A DNA stretch of 64,000 nucleotides, taken from positions 384,001 through 448,000 of the forward strand of contig CAXWPJ010000009.1 of the NCBI GenBank assembly GCA_963664115.2, in the 5' to 3' direction. Positions 28,179-35,525 of this stretch are shown here, in pieces (the first letter of the stretch is position 1; each line of letters begins with the position of its first letter). Below the pieces are notes generated by a model. The model was not told where the DNA came from and did no database searches. It worked only from the letters and a program-made list of their open reading frames with translations. The DNA comes from Terriglobia bacterium (lineage in GTDB: Bacteria; Acidobacteriota; Terriglobia; 20CM-2-55-15). The translations under genes were made by a program, and so were the position numbers.

Positions 28179-29147
28179 TCAATTAACGAGGTGGCAGGCG
28201 CCGAGACGGCCGTCAGCGAGCTTCTTTAGAGGAGGTTCTTCAGTGCGACAACGGTCGATGACAATGGGGCAGCGCGTGTGAAACCGACAACCCGCGGGAG
28301 GGTTGATGGGCGTGGGCACATCCCCGTGGAGCACGATCCGCTCCCGTTTCCGCCCCGGTTCCGGTATTGGAACAGCACTCAGCAGCGCCTGGGTATACGG
28401 ATGCCTTGGATCCGTGCAGATCTGAGCGCTGGTGCCGATCTCGACGATCTTTCCCAGATACATGACGCCGATTCGGTTGGAGATGTGTTCGATGACGGGA
28501 ATGCCGTGCGAAATAAAGAGGTAAGTCAGGCCGAAATCCTTCTGAAGGTCGGCCAGCAAGTTGATGATCTGTGCCTGAATCGAAACGTCCAGCGCAGAAA
28601 CCGGCTCGTCGGCCACGATCAGCTTCGGTTTCATGGCCAGTGCGCGCGCGATTCCTATTCTCTGACGCTGTCCGCCGCTGAATTCGTGCGGGTACCGACT
28701 GCCAACCCCGGGATCGAGGCCGACCGTCCTGAGCAGTTCCTCCACGCGCTGCTCTCTCTCCGACCCATGGGCCGTACCATGGATGGCAAACGGTTCTCCA
28801 ACGATAGCTCTGACCGGCATTCGCGGGTTTAACGAGGCATACGGATCCTGGAAAATGATCTGCATATCACGACGGCGGCGGCGCAAGTCGCGGGCACTGA
28901 GCCCCCGCAGGTCAATCCCGTCGAACTCGATCTCTCCCGCGTCGGGCTCAATCAGCCGGAGAACGGCTCGGCCAGTCGTTGTCTTCCCGCAGCCCGACTC
29001 CCCAACCAACCCGAGCGTCTCGCCACGGCGTATGGAAAAGCTCACGTCGTCGACAGCCTTGACATAGTCGGAAACCCGCGACAACATTCCCCTCTTTATC
29101 GGGAAATACTTGCGCAGGTTGCGGACTTCAAGGAGGTTTTCAGACAT
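28179..29147 (-). CDS. Oligopeptide/dipeptide ABC transporter ATP-binding protein (OppF/DppF-like)
   Basis: [42 protein letters not shown]. Confidence 0.92.
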
Positions 29148-30111
29148 GGATACACCGAGCCTGGTGGTCACCGTTGATCCAATCGAAGCCAATCTCTGAT
29201 TCGCTACACTCAGCCGTCGCCTTGTTGCAACGGGGCGCGAAAGCACACCCCCGAGGCAGATCGAGCAAGTTCGGGACGACTCCTTCGACCACGTCTAATT
29301 TCCCCTGCCGATGGAGACTCGATCCCAATTTCGGAATCGAGCGGAGCAAACCTTCAGTGTAGGGATGCCGCGGCTCTTCAAATACCGCTCTGGCCGTGCC
29401 GATTTCTACGATCTTGCCCGCGTACATGACCGCAACAGTATCTGCCACTTCGGCCACTACACCGAGGTCATGGGAAATAAGCATTAAGGAAAGGTTATAT
29501 TCCTCACGCAGCTGTACCAGGAGTTCTAGAATCTGTGCCTGTATCGTTACGTCGAGCGCAGTCGTGGGTTCGTCCGCGATCAGGAGCGTGGGTTTGCAAA
29601 CAAGGGCCATGGCGATCATAACCCGCTGACGCATCCCTCCCGAAAGCTGGTGAGGATAGTCCTGGGCGCGGCGCTCCGGGTCCGGTATGGCGACCGCCCG
29701 CATGGCTTCAACAGCGCGGTCCCAGGCCGCAGTCCGGGACACGTCCTCGTGAGCCAGGACCGATTCTGCGATCTGATAGCCAATCTTCAGAACCGGATTC
29801 AGCGCAGTCATCGGTTCTTGAAAAATCATGGCAACTTTGCTGCCACGCAACCGCCTCATTTCCACGGAATTCAGCTCGAGGATGTCTTGACCGTCGAGGA
29901 GGATCTCTCCACCCACAACGCGCCCCGGTCCGTCCACGAGGCGGAGAATCGAAAGCGCGGTCACGCTCTTACCCGAGCCGCTCTCACCGACCAACCCGAG
30001 TGTCCTGCCCCGGCCTATGGAAAACGACACATCATCGACGGCCTTGACGACACCGTCATCCGTAAAAAATTGCGTCTTCAGATTTCGCACTTCAAGTATG
30101 TTGGCACTCAA
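29140..30111 (-). CDS. Oligopeptide/dipeptide ABC transporter ATP-binding protein (OppD/DppD-like)
   Basis: [38 protein letters not shown]. Confidence 0.92.
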
Positions 30112-30214
30112 TCTCTCACCGCCTCACACCGACTATCGAATATCGTCGGAAATGCTAGCACAGACCAAGCTACGGAACATTGAAAGGGGACGGGTCAATT
30201 ACTAAACAGAGAGC

Positions 30215-30486
30215 GGCCGAGACGCCGCGGAGACAAGGAGTTCGAAACGAGGGTTTCGCGGGCTCATTGGAAAATACGTCGAGAAAACCCGAGCGAAAAC
30301 GACGCCGTATCCGCGGATGGATTGGCCGCTCGACCGGGCACAGAGATAGGCCGAGACGCCGCGGAGACAAGGAGTTCGAAACGAGGGTTTCGCGGGCTTA
30401 TTGGAAAATACGTCGAGAAAACCCGAGCGAAAACGACGCCGTATCCGCAGATGAATTGGCCGGTCGATCGGTGCTAGCAGAGATCG
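30215..30486. repeat. Imperfect 134-bp tandem duplication with internal inverted repeats
   Basis: Units begin at 30215 and 30349; each holds CCGCGGAGAC...GTATCCGC(G/A)G and a CGAAAC-GAGG-GTTTCG hairpin. Confidence 0.85.
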
Positions 30487-30500
30487 GCCGCTCGACCGGC

Positions 30501-33335
30501 TCAGGACTTTCCCATCAAGATGAACGGTGCCCAATAGTAGGGGTGGGGAAACTGAACCTTCACATCTAGCGCAGCCTGACGCAACGCCTCCGGCTTCGAC
30601 AAGCCGTCCAACAAGCCCTCGTAGAAGCGCTTCATAAGAAGAGTGGTCGATCGGTCGTTTACGCGCCACAGGCTGACGACCAGAGAGGGCGTCCCGGCGT
30701 AGAGAAAGCCTCGGGTCAGTCCCAACAGTTCGTCGCCTTCGTAGAGGGCGCTCATACCCGTCTCACAAGCACTCAGGGTGGTCAGTTCAGCTCCGAGCTT
30801 AAGGTTAAAAATGTCAACGAGATTGAGCCAGCTATCCCCCAGTTTGAGAGATGAAAACATCGGGTTGTCGGCACGAAACACGCCATGCGCTGCTATGTGC
30901 AGCTTCCCAGCCTTTGGCCCGTGCTCTTTCAAAAGGTCCGCGCCTGCCTCTTCTCCAACAAATACGCGAGCATTCGGTAGAAGCTCCCGGAGCATTTCAG
31001 CCTCATCTGCGATCGCCGGGGTCGAAGGATCGGGCACAGCCAGAACCAGGTCCATATCTGCTGCCACCGGCGTCTTCGCCCTGCAAATCTTCAAGACCGA
31101 CGCGCTGGCGCTATAAACAACATCGTGATTATCGAGGACATATTCGGAACCGTCATAAAGGGCCTGGAAAGGAACATAGTGCAGCACGTGGTGCGGAATG
31201 ATAACCAGCGACCGGCCATCGATCCACCCCTCCAACGGAGCCATCAGCATGCGGTATAGATCCTGAAGGTGATGCTGTACGGCACGCAGCAGAAGCGGGC
31301 CATGGTCTTTCAGGTAGGCGTCGTTCAGATGGAACTTCGACAACTGGAAGTTTAATCCCCTCAGGCAGGCGCGGACGGAGCCGGTTTCGGCCAGATCCTT
31401 TACGAAATGAAATCCGTCGGGCTGGATGACGAACGCGCAAAACTGATTCCCGACCATGTAGTACTCGATCAGAACTTCTGCTTCTGAAAGCATCTGCTGA
31501 ACGTCTTCGACCGAGAGCATGGGCATCGATTCGAATGTAGCCCAACCCTCCCTTTCAGAGCCCGCCTCACGCAGCAGTGAAATCATTTCCTGTTCACGTT
31601 TGAAAATCTCTTCCTGAATCACTTTGTCGCTGGCCCGGGCACTCACCGTTGTACCCACCTGGGACAACCGGCTATACAGCCCGTTCAAATCCTGACGCAC
31701 CTTCTGGATCGCCTGCTGCTTCGGATTCGACTCGTCCGACTGCCAGAGGGTGTCCGTATTGCGCTCGAGCAAGTCGATCAGCGTCCGCGACTTCGACCGC
31801 TCGACGAACTCGAATGCTTCGCCTGGCAAGTCCATCTGGATCTTTAATCCAACCAGGTTTTCGTAGACCTGGTACTTGTCCTTACCAAATGACATCCGGA
31901 ATTCGTCGAGCTGAATATTGCCGCGCAGGGATTCCATTTCCTCGATCGCTTTTCGATAGAGACGCTCGGCCTCAAGGACGCCTCCTTTGGCGGCATGGAG
32001 ACTCCCCATCAAGTCATAGCATTGATAGGAAACCCACTTGGCGTGGTAACCCGAAAGACTCGTCAGTGCACGGTTCGCCTCGTCGATCGCATCGTCTTCA
32101 CGCCCCTGTTCTCGCAAGCTGAGCGCCAAGGTAATGCGGGCGTATGCTCCACGGACGGCCAGATCCTCGGCTTCGAAGGCGGCCGCGGCCGCGGCCGCGA
32201 GGGTCTGGGCGGCAGGGAAATCGCCTTTAGCGTTTTGAAGCTTCGCCAGTTGCAAATTGACCCCGGCAGCCTCGACGGCTTTACCGAGACCCCGAAACAT
32301 GTCAACGGCATGGCGGAAAGTCTGTTCTGCCGCGTCGGTTTCGCCGCGTTCCGACTGCGCAATTCCTGCCAAAGTCAAACACTGGGCCGTTTCAGCGGGG
32401 CTCGAATTTTCTTCAAAGAACGCCTGTGCGCTTTCGGTCAATTCCGCGGCCTCCTGCGGAAGATTCAACTGGAGATATATCTCGGCCCGCTCGAGATCGC
32501 ACAGAGCCAAGCGGCGATCGTCTTCTTGCTCGCGGTAACGCGGACGGACTTTTTCTAGGCTGCGGAGCGCTTCAGAATAACTGCCACGCTTGAAGTAAAG
32601 GTCCGCAATGTTCTTGTCCAATATGTCGAACCAAAGGCCGATTTCGTGACGTACACAGTATTCGCGTGCCTTCTCGAAGCTGAGTATCGCCTCGTCAAAA
32701 CGGTTCAGCTGGGTGAATGCTTCGGCCCGGTTAATTTCCACAGCCGCAGCGACAATGTATTGATCGGTTCCCTCGGCCGCATTGAAAGCCCGATCGTATT
32801 CCACTAGTGAGTCCTTGAATCGATCCTGGCGATAAAACAGGTTTCCGAGGGCAACGTGAACACGCGGCAAATATTCCCCATCCTCAACTGCCTCCAGAAG
32901 GCCTTTTGCGTGCTCAGCAAGATCCTGAGCCCGTTCGAACTCGCCGAGCGACATCAGGTTTTCCGATTGTGCAACCAGTGTGCAGCCGAATTCCCGGTCA
33001 GCACCGGCCTCGGCAAACAGATCGCTGGCTTTCTCGAAGAATGGCTGGGCCTCGGCTCCTTTTCTCATGTTCATGAGCACATAGGCCTGGCACTGATGGG
33101 CAAAGCCGGCTGCGAGAGGTGTGTCGAGATCAGACGCGAGGAGGAGATTGGTTTCAGCAAGAACTTCAGCAAATTGCCTGTCCTTGGGGAGCCATTCGCG
33201 AATCAGAGCAGAAAGTTTCTCGATGAGTTCTTGGGAGGGAGAAAAACCGGAGTCAACGACAAACGCGCGTTGACCTACGACATCACGAACCTGAACCAGA
33301 GCATCCAGGAATTCCTGAACCGAGGAGAGTTTCAC
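30501..33335 (-). CDS. TPR-repeat CHAT-domain (caspase-like cysteine protease) protein
   Basis: Long TPR-like helical array; AFEFVERSKSRTL linker; LHIAAHG and LSACETG catalytic motifs; VVSLWRV, HPYYWAPF. Confidence 0.93.
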   Translation of the reverse strand: MKLSSVQEFLDALVQVRDVVGQRAFVVDSGFSPSQELIEKLSALIREWLPKDRQFAEVLAETNLLLASDLDTPLAAGFAHQCQAYVLMNMRKGAEAQPFFEKASDLFAEAGADREFGCTLVAQSENLMSLGEFERAQDLAEHAKGLLEAVEDGEYLPRVHVALGNLFYRQDRFKDSLVEYDRAFNAAEGTDQYIVAAAVEINRAEAFTQLNRFDEAILSFEKAREYCVRHEIGLWFDILDKNIADLYFKRGSYSEALRSLEKVRPRYREQEDDRRLALCDLERAEIYLQLNLPQEAAELTESAQAFFEENSSPAETAQCLTLAGIAQSERGETDAAEQTFRHAVDMFRGLGKAVEAAGVNLQLAKLQNAKGDFPAAQTLAAAAAAAFEAEDLAVRGAYARITLALSLREQGREDDAIDEANRALTSLSGYHAKWVSYQCYDLMGSLHAAKGGVLEAERLYRKAIEEMESLRGNIQLDEFRMSFGKDKYQVYENLVGLKIQMDLPGEAFEFVERSKSRTLIDLLERNTDTLWQSDESNPKQQAIQKVRQDLNGLYSRLSQVGTTVSARASDKVIQEEIFKREQEMISLLREAGSEREGWATFESMPMLSVEDVQQMLSEAEVLIEYYMVGNQFCAFVIQPDGFHFVKDLAETGSVRACLRGLNFQLSKFHLNDAYLKDHGPLLLRAVQHHLQDLYRMLMAPLEGWIDGRSLVIIPHHVLHYVPFQALYDGSEYVLDNHDVVYSASASVLKICRAKTPVAADMDLVLAVPDPSTPAIADEAEMLRELLPNARVFVGEEAGADLLKEHGPKAGKLHIAAHGVFRADNPMFSSLKLGDSWLNLVDIFNLKLGAELTTLSACETGMSALYEGDELLGLTRGFLYAGTPSLVVSLWRVNDRSTTLLMKRFYEGLLDGLSKPEALRQAALDVKVQFPHPYYWAPFILMGKS

Positions 33336-33425
33336 GGTAAGGTCGCTTCCTGCGTTTATCTACGCGTTCTTCCTTTACGCGCTATATATCTGCGATCCAG
33401 TCGCCCTCCACTAGAGGGAAGATTC

Positions 33426-34043
33426 TTACGCCAGGACAGCGTCTCGACGATGTACGCAGAAAAGTGTCACCTGCCCGTCAGGCAGGTCCACGGACAAATG
33501 ATAGGTGTCCTGGGGAACTTCGTCGAACAAAAACTCTCCCACCGGGTTCGTCTGGGTCTTATACCGGACCACGCCATGAGACTCTAAACTCACAGGCGTG
33601 TTTTCAAAGAAAGACTCCGATTCTGACAAGACCTGGCCGGCCAGAGACACGCGGTCGTCTCCAGAATCGATGCGGAGATCAACATCTACATTGCCTGCCC
33701 TGAAGAGAAGCTGCCGCGGTACACTGCCCACGTAGCGAATTCCAACCGGGGCGGGCTGCTCGAAGCTGTCGAAGACGCGTTTGGCAACTCGCAGCACCTT
33801 GCTGGTCGTGCTCTCGTTAGGCCGTAAAACCGGCTGGAACAGTTGAATGCCCCACTCTAGAACTTCTGCGGGCGGCTCGTTCGTGGTATCACTTTTCAGG
33901 AATCCAAGTAATTCATTGAATTCGTCGGCATTATCCTGACACTGTTCACACGCGCTCAAGTGCTGGTTTGCCGCGGCCAGCGCTGTAGCATCCGCCTTGT
34001 TTTCAATTTGTTCTATGAGTGTTTCAACCGTTAAGTGGCGCAT
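33426..34043 (-). CDS. Soluble putative anti-sigma factor (HxxxCxxC zinc site + C-terminal beta-sandwich)
   Basis: MRHLT...HLSACEQC; no TM segment; beta-rich C-terminus (RQLLFRAG..DVDLRI, TNPVGEFLFDEVP..YHL); directly downstream of an ECF sigma. Confidence 0.78.
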   Translation of the reverse strand: MRHLTVETLIEQIENKADATALAAANQHLSACEQCQDNADEFNELLGFLKSDTTNEPPAEVLEWGIQLFQPVLRPNESTTSKVLRVAKRVFDSFEQPAPVGIRYVGSVPRQLLFRAGNVDVDLRIDSGDDRVSLAGQVLSESESFFENTPVSLESHGVVRYKTQTNPVGEFLFDEVPQDTYHLSVDLPDGQVTLFCVHRRDAVLA

Positions 34044-34186
34044 CGAGATCTCCGTATACTTTCCAAATCCATGTTTGTGGGATCCCCGACTATCTCTGAA
34101 GACCCATCAGACGTTTCCCTACGTCTACGTAACAATAGAGCCACCTCTACCGGCAGAAATACAAAAATGTCGACCGTTCCGGGCTG

Positions 34187-34756
34187 TTATTGGACTCCCC
34201 TCCGGCGGAGCGTCGCACGGAGCTTCTCCAGGCACCGGGCGCGGGTCGGTCCGATACTTGGAACCGGCATCTTGAGTTTCTCGCTGATTTCAACGTAGGT
34301 GGGGTCAGAGGGGTCCAGATAGAGGAGTTCCAGAAGCCGCCGGCATCGGTGGGCCATTTCGCCTATTGCCTCACGGACCTTCTGCTCCCGGTCCGCACGA
34401 ATACCTACGACCTCGCTTGTTTCGGCGGGGTCCGGAGTCGCCTCCATGCCTTCCTCGTCGGAGACGTCCCTATGCTTCATCGAACGGACGTGGATGCAGT
34501 AGCGGGTTGTCGTCGTGATCAGCCATGAACTGACCTTGGACTCGTCTTTGAGCTCCTGGAGATGTTCGATCAGCTTGACGCAGACCGTCTGAAACACATC
34601 GTTACAATCGGAAGGGGCGAAACCGAACTTGTTCGGAATAGAGAATATCAACCTGCGATACCGCGCAATCAGGGTTTCCCAAGCCCCAGCCTCACCTTCC
34701 AAACACCGGCCAACGAGCTCCGAGTCGCTTAGTTTGTTGTAGGCGTCCGGTTTCAT
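34187..34756 (-). CDS. ECF RNA polymerase sigma factor
   Basis: SDSELV..CLEG...AWETLI, DVFQTV, WLITTT, YVEISEKLKMPVPSIGPTRARCLEKLR. Confidence 0.92.
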   Translation of the reverse strand: MKPDAYNKLSDSELVGRCLEGEAGAWETLIARYRRLIFSIPNKFGFAPSDCNDVFQTVCVKLIEHLQELKDESKVSSWLITTTTRYCIHVRSMKHRDVSDEEGMEATPDPAETSEVVGIRADREQKVREAIGEMAHRCRRLLELLYLDPSDPTYVEISEKLKMPVPSIGPTRARCLEKLRATLRRRGVQ

Positions 34757-35004
34757 TTCCGGATTTTCCTGGCTTTCCAGAAGTTATGAAGTCCGAAACC
34801 CAGCATGGCAACAGAGAAGATGACGGTCAGCGCGATGCGCCAGACGCCACCGTCTGGCGCTGCAGCCCAACGCTGGTATTCTGGAACGACGCTGGCGCCT
34901 CCAATAATCGCCAGCGCGAGGAAAAACCCGCCAACAACTTCAAGCGTCAGTGTGTGTAATACCCGAAAGGCATCCTTGAAAGCGGTTCTGAATCTTCCTG
35001 CCAT
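34753..35004 (-). CDS. Small two-TM membrane protein translationally coupled to the sigma factor
   Basis: Two hydrophobic segments; stop overlaps sigma ATG (ATGA at 34753-34756); AGGAAG upstream. Confidence 0.7.
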   Translation of the reverse strand: MAGRFRTAFKDAFRVLHTLTLEVVGGFFLALAIIGGASVVPEYQRWAAAPDGGVWRIALTVIFSVAMLGFGLHNFWKARKIRK

Positions 35005-35222
35005 GAGTGTGGGCTTCCTACGCTATTACCTCTTTCGTGACGCGGCGGCCAACGTCACTGGCATCTTGACTGGCTGTGGGGCCGAAGTTCAATCCCTGTT
35101 TTAGGAAGCTTAACAATTTGCGCTCGACCCGAGACAAGCGCTTCGCTTTCACCCGCTTGACAGCCCTCCGAAGAAGTGTGATACCTTGCGTGCTTAGCGC
35201 CACAGGACCGGACGGAGAAACT

Positions 35223-35525
35223 TTGGAACTCGACGATAACCTGAAGAAGCTGATGAAGGATCTCGGCACGGCAATTAACGACGCCCTATCCGATTCCACA
35301 GGGATCAGCGATGCAATTCAGAACGTCCGCGACGGCGGCTACGACGTGTACCTGGTCCTCGAGGCTACGATCGGGTTCAACAGGCTGCCGGGCGAAGGCC
35401 AGGCGGGCGCAGAAGCTGATGACCGGGCTACTATTCACAACGATGTCGAACTGCAGGTCAACGCACAGGACATGAAGTTTCTCAAGTCCCTTAAAATCAG
35501 AGTCGACGATCTGGAAAACCAATAA
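35223..35525 (+). CDS. Hypothetical protein
   Basis: TTG start after GGAGA; LMKDLGTAINDALS...GYDVYLVLEATIGFN...FLKSLKI reads as a real small protein. Confidence 0.72.
   Translation: MELDDNLKKLMKDLGTAINDALSDSTGISDAIQNVRDGGYDVYLVLEATIGFNRLPGEGQAGAEADDRATIHNDVELQVNAQDMKFLKSLKIRVDDLENQ

Follow-up and report, generated by a model that had tools for sequence, protein, structure and literature searches.

Among the groups into which extracytoplasmic function (ECF) sigma factors fall, ECF54, whose gene neighbourhood reportedly goes back to Huang et al. 2015, comes closest to the locus that we analyse here. As the entry for this group in PMC7826278 describes it, the sigma factor is accompanied by a carboxypeptidase-regulatory-like protein at position +1 and by a nearby protein that combines tetratricopeptide repeats (TPR) with a CHAT domain; in the same entry the group is confined to Actinobacteria, a subtilase stands at +2 or -1 (0.68 copies per sigma factor) and no anti-sigma factor is listed, and proteolytic control of ECF54 has already been proposed in the corresponding passage of PMC8999054. 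No bench test of an ECF54-type system was found in the literature covered, subscription journals lying outside its scope. In Craspase, according to the relevant part of PMC10028731, the protease Csx29 cuts Csx30 between residues 427 and 429, and for DdvA a self-encoded protease is proposed to start sigma release (the DdvA part of PMC11506125). The DNA considered here is a stretch of 64,000 nucleotides (the window) from a Terriglobia bacterium (assembly GCA_963664115.2, contig CAXWPJ010000009.1, positions 384,001 to 448,000), which carries a cassette of three genes, for an ECF sigma factor, an anti-sigma protein and a TPR-CHAT protease, preceded by the gene of a small membrane protein:

34753-35004, minus strand: small membrane protein of 83 residues with two hydrophobic stretches (open reading frame)
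34187-34756, minus strand: ECF sigma factor of 189 residues, ECF54-like clade (TIGR02937)
33426-34043, minus strand: soluble anti-sigma protein of 205 residues, with a zinc domain (1-70), a low-confidence linker (81-109) and a beta-sandwich (111-198)
30501-33335, minus strand: TPR-CHAT caspase-like protease of 944 residues, TPR array at about 50-470, CHAT domain at 689-943

On balance, we consider it probable that the cassette is a protease-gated switch with a cut after Arg103 of the anti-sigma protein and a CsrA paralogue in its output. The zinc-type 205-residue protein likely holds the ECF sigma factor inactive; the protease, which is predicted to grip this inhibitor by its beta-sandwich, likely cuts it after Arg103, and the sigma factor would be freed through decay of the N-terminal anti-sigma piece. 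Once free, it would transcribe its own anti-sigma and protease genes together with the gene of the CsrA paralogue, and this altered CsrA, which is without Arg44, may tune the translation of the protease and so close a loop. The gene set is already catalogued; what is added here is the docking model, the candidate cut site, the promoters, the CsrA target and the feedback. A protease-gated switch was also what the initial annotation of this DNA had proposed and, with the model of the protease bound to the anti-sigma protein as its basis, it stays the best reading of the locus.

A zinc anti-sigma domain joined to a beta-sandwich

The initial annotation had described four co-oriented genes, a zinc site in a 205-residue protein without a transmembrane helix, and intact catalytic codons in the protease, and this description holds: all four open reading frames lie on the minus strand at the places given, the zinc motif His28-Cys32-Cys35 is invariant across 133 relatives, the model of the 205-residue protein has no membrane helix, and the codons read CAT (His817) and TGT (Cys857). 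An upstream zinc ligand, His3, is present in 75% of 121 sequences and makes up, with His28, Cys32 and Cys35, the motif of the zinc anti-sigma (ZAS) class in a helical domain. Residues 1-75, as modelled, resemble the zinc anti-sigma factor RsiW (Z 7.0, root-mean-square deviation 5.2, 68 of 70 residues aligned), a likeness also detected by sequence (E 0.0011). By analogy with RsiW, the protein likely binds the sigma factor through this domain and holds it inactive.

The C-terminal half, which the initial annotation missed, as it did the promoter-like site at 34138-34163 and the GGA hairpins ahead of the protease gene, is an Ig/transthyretin-like beta-sandwich. It matches Pfam CarboxypepD_reg (PF13620) with E 4.6e-5, under the family cut-off, and a Foldseek search with the model of the whole protein returned no match at E 0.001. 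Residues 54-188 are homologous to the +1 protein of an ECF54-type locus of Nonomuraea (hhalign 96.5%, E 8.9e-10). Arg103, in the low-confidence linker between the two domains, does not vary among 133 relatives, and 89 of 90 locus-derived sequences have it, units that have no sigma factor included.

The protease is without a leader peptide, and no SAVED domain was found in it. Residues 689-943 match Pfam CHAT with E 8.8e-63, several TPR families also match, and the fold matches Csx29, separase and DdvA. With His817 and Cys857 invariant in 94 aligned relatives, the protein has the caspase fold and His-Cys dyad of clan CD and of CHAT proteases, from which activity is predicted. Glu778, after strand 1, and Asp894, at the start of helix 4, are invariant as well. 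In the separase model, as set out in the relevant part of PMC4626109, two acidic residues grip the P1 arginine, with an Asp at the start of helix alpha4; judged by position, Glu778 and Asp894 may correspond to these anchors. Csx29 has a Ser at the position matching Asp894. The residues of interest are encoded as follows:

33735-33737, minus strand: codon of Arg103, candidate P1 residue (invariance and complex model)
30885-30887, minus strand: catalytic His817 (invariance)
30765-30767, minus strand: catalytic Cys857 (invariance)
30654-30656, minus strand: Asp894, placed like the separase acidic residue that grips the P1 arginine (putative, by position)
31272-31361, minus strand: helices 659-688, predicted docking site for the beta-sandwich (complex model)

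A model of the protease bound to the anti-sigma protein

We modelled the complex between protease residues 70-944 and anti-sigma residues 81-205. The complex scored 0.72, against 0.00 for the best of three controls; 116 of 157 solved complexes and 2 of 215 mismatched pairs came up to the same mark, a calibration that is rough since own alignments were used. The runs agree in at least 71% of contacts, with a predicted local distance difference test (pLDDT) value of at least 79 for the partner. In the model, the conserved face of the beta-sandwich packs on protease helices 659-688, and the linker at residues 98-104 contacts His817 and residues 891-894. A search of solved sequences gave no similar complex. 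The model is evidence of binding, not of cleavage; together with the invariance of Arg103, it makes this residue the candidate P1 position, and we hold a cut after Arg103 to be probable.

Conservation of the cassette

Orthologues of the anti-sigma gene occur in 21 of the 24 genomes of the family, the relatives being Terriglobia of the Acidobacteriota, with the sigma gene upstream in 21 of 21 and the protease gene downstream in 20 of 21, the last locus ending at a contig edge. The trio is thus kept together in relatives, which had been set beforehand as the conservation check. Against four close loci, the ratio of nonsynonymous to synonymous substitution rates (dN/dS) is 0.05-0.14 for the sigma factor and the protease and 0.10-0.24 for the anti-sigma protein, with 0.06-0.11 for oppD and tgt. 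Since orthologues are found in 21 of 24 family genomes at a dN/dS of 0.05-0.24, the cassette is not a chance arrangement. It is a single vertical locus, in line with the earlier description of a module resident among core genes. That description also called the module CRISPR-free, and indeed the window contains no CRISPR-like repeat family, and Cas1 and RAMP are without a match across the genome, which is 97% complete.

The sigma factor and its predicted promoter

The sigma factor scores 74 bits against the NCBIfam model sigma70-ECF TIGR02937 (cut-off 42.9). Its best match in the plasmid collection is the actinobacterial sigma factor of the Nonomuraea locus (39% identity), which is of ECF54 type and also holds a CHAT protein, a subtilase and the +1 protein. 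In a quick tree, the sigma factors of the subtype found in the window form one clade (99) within an acidobacterial clade (93), most members of which have a subtilase, and the actinobacterial sigma factors are the sister group.

34138-34163, minus strand: predicted promoter of the sigma factor (GTATTT, 16-17 nucleotides, CTCT), ahead of the anti-sigma and protease genes

In 22 of 23 orthologous loci the GTATTT/CTCT motif lies 58-138 nucleotides 5' of the anti-sigma start, and in the 23rd it lies further up. The site in the window is the highest-scoring one in a scan of the genome. Its cores GTAT and CTC are common with the ECF54 prediction, GTATCAG / CTCC, the consensus here being GTATTT / CTCT; the Nonomuraea locus has GTATCAG with CTCT ahead of its subtilase. 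We consider it very probable that the sigma factor fires from the predicted promoters. A DsbA-like gene was set aside as a target of the sigma factor, its motif not being conserved (score above 10 in only 2 of 17 loci), and nine near-identical motif copies in another genome (G010), with diverse frames downstream, were judged to be a repeated element.

Contigs from two RNA libraries span parts of the anti-sigma gene, and those of one library also span the 5' part of the protease gene, DNA in the libraries being possible. None of the RNA contigs listed spans the sigma gene; one ends at 34117, near the predicted start, which proves nothing. A scan for sigma-70 promoters and terminators gave 3 promoter-like sites where 2.3 were expected, and Rfam gave no match.

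A CsrA paralogue as a predicted second target

An exact-pattern promoter search in 25 genomes, with 20 of the sites looked at in context, led to csrA in three genomes. Using a matrix trained solely on the anti-sigma sites, we found the motif, with scores of 7-26, 44-75 nucleotides 5' of a CsrA paralogue; this holds in 19 of 20 genomes, among them 16 of the 17 not used for finding the lead. By contrast with the paralogue, none of the 10 ordinary csrA copies examined, out of 24 further matches, is preceded by the motif. The paralogue is specific to the family: among cassette-bearing genomes 20 of 22 have it (the other two are 88% and 68% complete), and of the 3 family genomes that lack the cassette none does. 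Position 44 is Thr or Ser in all 20 paralogues, whereas the ordinary copy keeps Arg. The pertinent part of PMC9928087 reports that a change of Arg44 lowers the RNA binding of an Rsm protein, and, for Rsm proteins, that AnGGA is bound in hairpin loops and that heterodimers can form. No literature linking CsrA, Acidobacteria, a sigma factor of ECF type and a paralogue was found within the scope given above.

Candidate sites for a protein of this type are present in both leaders of the cassette:

34108-34127, minus strand: hairpin with an AGGGA loop in the anti-sigma leader, putative CsrA-type site
33362-33382, minus strand: GGA hairpin 1 in the TPR-CHAT leader, putative CsrA-type site
33344-33354, minus strand: GGA hairpin 2, covering the TPR-CHAT ribosome-binding site, putative CsrA-type site

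At least one GGA hairpin is found in 10 of 22 orthologous anti-sigma leaders. For the protease leaders the figures are 16 of 21 with at least one and 8 of 21 with two or more, compared with a background of 16.4% and 1.8%, respectively, among 1064 leaders of the own genome and with 7 and 0 of 47 leaders of paralogous proteases, whose starts were guessed. The stem of hairpin 1 shows one compensatory pair among seven aligned leaders. There is, in our estimate, an even chance that the CsrA paralogue tunes the translation of the protease through these hairpins, as a feedback of either sign; such a feedback would most likely work by diluting the ordinary CsrA.

In the genome of the window (G000:C9:503903-508940, locus L251), the gene of the CsrA paralogue, with its predicted promoter near 507580, leads a run that further includes a gene for a TPR protein, one of the CofD/YvcK family and one like glmU; a D-Ala-D-Ala carboxypeptidase gene is oriented divergently from this run. 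In locus L062 a full cassette adjoins the equivalent run.

The wider family and the nature of the trigger

A profile search covered 401 genomes of the phylum and relatives, from which 60 paralogue regions, chosen from the stronger matches, were taken. Outside the subtype of the window, 64 beta-sandwich genes in 58 loci have a CHAT gene nearby in 59 cases, a subtilase in 57 and a sigma gene in 48; 13 of the 64 have a histidine kinase and no sigma factor, and one sigma-less unit lies in the window's own genome. As the beta-sandwich tracks CHAT (59/64) over sigma (48/64), it goes with the protease, and the output can be exchanged. The protease-docking domain is fused to an anti-sigma domain in 40 of the 64 paralogues.

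Of the 56 subtilases beside the paralogous cassettes, 43 repeat a five-residue, locus-specific word ahead of the catalytic His, and 50 begin like a protein with a leader; among unrelated subtilases the repeat is seen in 1 of 12. Nine loci were inspected after clustering had flagged them, and all nine have parts of a peptide ATP-binding cassette (ABC) importer nearby. In RRNPP systems, secreted and re-imported peptides are read by a TPR array. The paralogous loci suggest, tentatively and at somewhat less than even chance, that a short peptide acts as the trigger by binding to the TPR array. The window locus has no such source, none of the 23 long loci of its subtype having a subtilase, so that it would be either an orphan receptor or responsive to another cue. 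A broader proposal, which we regard as speculative and rather unlikely, is that the wider cassette is an undescribed form of peptide signalling, in which a secreted subtilase frees a locus-specific peptide, an importer takes it up, and the TPR protease reads it and cuts the anti-sigma protein; the window locus would then be an orphan listening branch, domesticated in the core genome and wired to a decoy CsrA without Arg44 that lifts CsrA repression, that of the protease message included, and makes a self-amplifying switch over the CsrA regulon.

Several related loci were noted. The same genome has a second cassette (L001:8739-15133; G000:C12 about 304,700-311,100), with a TPR-CHAT protein, a beta-sandwich-only partner, no sigma factor, a leader-bearing subtilase with nine copies of a seven-residue peptide, a soluble histidine kinase and a NarL-type regulator. 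A third CHAT gene, with a leader (L002:4058-11229; G000:C12 about 384,000-391,200), adjoins what by the look of the frames are a haemagglutinin-like secreted protein and a two-partner-secretion-like transporter. An HD-GYP-type gene often lies 3' of the subtilase in full cassettes (L041, L050-L052, L054, L057-L059, L061-L063, L068), and a subtilase with a repeated nine-residue peptide (L197:1865-3283) has no CHAT gene on its 9-kb contig.

Weighing the protease-gated switch against its alternatives

A number of observations weigh against a protease-gated switch with a CsrA output. In the complex model, Cys857 lies outside the confident interface residues and the loop at 859-867 is poorly predicted, and a linker bound in this way would be expected of an inhibitor no less than of a substrate. 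There is no explanation of how cleavage at residue 103 would release the sigma factor from domain 1-70, as there is none for Csx30 in the account given by the relevant part of PMC10028731. Beyond two sites, the genome-wide promoter scan is at chance (37 matches versus 43 in the reversed genome), and a wider matrix, with 299 matches versus 227 in the reversed genome, gave no further target above chance. GGA is also a ribosome-binding sequence. The genomes compared are kin and not independent, and because all three cassette-less genomes belong to one genus, the absence of the paralogue from them counts as one event. The subtilase matches in four genus-mates and in one further trio-bearing genome include none with repeats, which weakens a self-made peptide trigger. 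Finally, 6 of the 23 long loci of the subtype are disrupted by insertion, frameshift or loss (L033, L035, L037, L039, L181, L192), the cause being an insertion sequence or a like insert in two of them, while one has lost the protease gene.

The alternative that survives best, though we consider it improbable, reverses the roles of the two proteins: the 205-residue protein would be a protease inhibitor, a securin-like bait with Arg103 in the active site, loss of zinc or a switch of partner would set the sigma factor free, and the protease would cut other proteins of the cell. This is consistent with a complex model that shows binding only, and with the 13 paralogous loci that keep a short beta-sandwich protein with the same Arg and neither zinc domain nor sigma factor, in which cleavage would release little. 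PCaspase has a dedicated inhibitor, PCi, beside it, but PCi is itself cleaved (both in the PCaspase part of 10.1101/2023.06.23.546230), and the simplest reading of a docking domain fused to an anti-sigma domain, as 40 of 64 paralogues have it, is delivery of the anti-sigma domain to the protease, as CalpL-CalpT-CalpS is described there.

An anti-phage sensor, in which the TPR array would respond to a phage protein and the sigma factor would activate defence genes, is in our view less probable still. Three solved bacterial relatives from the fold search (Csx29, DdvA) act in defence; however, the cassette is a single vertical core locus whose sigma factor and protease have a core-gene-like dN/dS, PADLOC gave no match below E 0.005, Cas1 and RAMP are without a match, and the one conserved target outside the locus is a CsrA paralogue. 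The phage trigger that the initial annotation had entertained is accordingly favoured by nothing at this locus, and the reading we retain is the protease-gated switch. That the cassette is instead a decaying relic, bereft of its subtilase partner and with leftover motifs, as the disrupted loci and the one genus altogether without it might suggest, is very unlikely given a dN/dS of 0.05-0.14 for sigma factor and protease, an invariant dyad, a promoter and hairpins that are kept across genera and specific to the subtype, RNA contigs from two libraries over parts of the anti-sigma gene, and frameshifts that may be assembly errors.

Insertion site and neighbouring genes

Outside the family, 9 of 9 homologues of the membrane gene found by profile have no sigma, anti-sigma or CHAT gene within 1.5 kb, and 8 of these 9 abut a methylmalonyl-CoA mutase gene. 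The three cassette-less genomes of the family show the same empty site and have no sigma factor above 28% identity. These empty sites indicate that insertion of the trio separated the membrane gene from the mutase gene. By this comparison of sequences, the membrane gene is older than the cassette, an upstream core gene and a bystander; the view of it as a module part was given up, and so was a role as sensor, since elsewhere it adjoins the mutase gene with the trio absent. A divergent small gene of no known family (35076-35525) stands head to head with the membrane gene across Terriglobia.

Downstream of the protease gene, the window deviates from its relatives:

30206-30471: 134-bp tandem duplication, not part of the switch, in place of the relatives' methylmalonyl-CoA mutase gene

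Its two copies are 95% identical, and a third copy, 72% identical, lies at G000:C9 near 861,600. A role of the oligopeptide ABC ATPases at 28179-30111 as importer of the module was not supported: in 14 of 15 further loci the mutase gene follows the protease gene, the 15th locus ending first, the ATPases belong to a core run toward tgt and secD, and the importer ATPases near the peptide repeats share only about 42% identity with any own-genome copy. One genome (G004) has a second, intact copy of the cassette (L195), nearly identical to L036 of another lineage, which may be a binning contaminant.

Implications and comparison with known systems

Bacterial CHAT proteases are common, and in the literature covered their substrates are known only from CRISPR-linked cases. 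The present locus is directly testable: it comes with a candidate substrate that can be named, one putative site of cleavage, a pair of predicted promoters and a possible feedback loop. If the switch is real, a caspase-like protease would run everyday gene control in an abundant, poorly cultured phylum, the ECF54 +1 protein would be an overlooked anti-sigma adaptor, and the output would gain a CsrA paralogue with a changed RNA-binding residue.

The initial annotation had taken Craspase as the nearest relative, a place that now goes to the ECF54 neighbourhood, which is closer and for which proteolytic control has been put forward. As far as the published entry on ECF54 goes, the locus shares with that group the carboxypeptidase-regulatory-like +1 protein and the TPR-CHAT protein; its predicted promoter resembles that of the group in the GTAT and CTC cores, and its sigma factor and +1 protein have homologues in the Nonomuraea locus. 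It differs in its acidobacterial host, in the full zinc anti-sigma domain on the +1 protein, in having no adjacent subtilase (0 of 23 long loci) and in its predicted CsrA-paralogue target. With Craspase, in the relevant part of PMC10028731, it has in common a cytoplasmic TPR-CHAT protein with a His-Cys dyad, a two-domain anti-sigma protein, an ECF sigma factor and an autoregulated locus. Here, however, there is no Cas7-11 or array, the Csx29 model NF041237 reaches 49.1 bits against a cut-off of 300, and the anti-sigma protein consists of a zinc domain and a beta-sandwich with no Csx30 match among solved sequences.

DdvA/DdvS of Myxococcus xanthus likewise brings a zinc anti-sigma domain, an ECF sigma factor as well as a TPR-CHAT protein into one pathway, but DdvA, as the part of PMC11506125 on it has it, is a single transmembrane protein with a periplasmic TPR-CHAT that needs RseP, whereas the two proteins here are separate and soluble. 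In CalpL-CalpT-CalpS and SAVED-CHAT/PCaspase, too, a ligand-gated protease acts on an anti-sigma or sigma factor; these are gated by cyclic oligoadenylates through SAVED, which is missing here, and lie in type III CRISPR loci (the sections concerned of 10.1101/2023.06.23.546230). The neighbourhoods of EACC2 caspases (DUF1822) similarly place a caspase-family protease beside an ECF sigma factor, with a transcriptional output proposed; they have EACC2/DUF1822 domains, and no zinc anti-sigma domain, beta-sandwich or subtilase is described for them in the part of PMC8195603 that treats them. A likeness to the RRNPP systems (Rap, NprR, PlcR) lies in the TPR array as likely sensor and in the paralogous loci with leader-bearing repeat subtilases and sometimes peptide importers, although the output here is a protease, the likeness to RapF is weak (E 0.004) and the window locus has no peptide source. 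The cassette works like the Craspase arm, CalpL-CalpT-CalpS and DdvA and belongs to none of them; going by its sequence, it is an acidobacterial, subtilase-less, ECF54-like variant that departs from ECF54 in two of its features.

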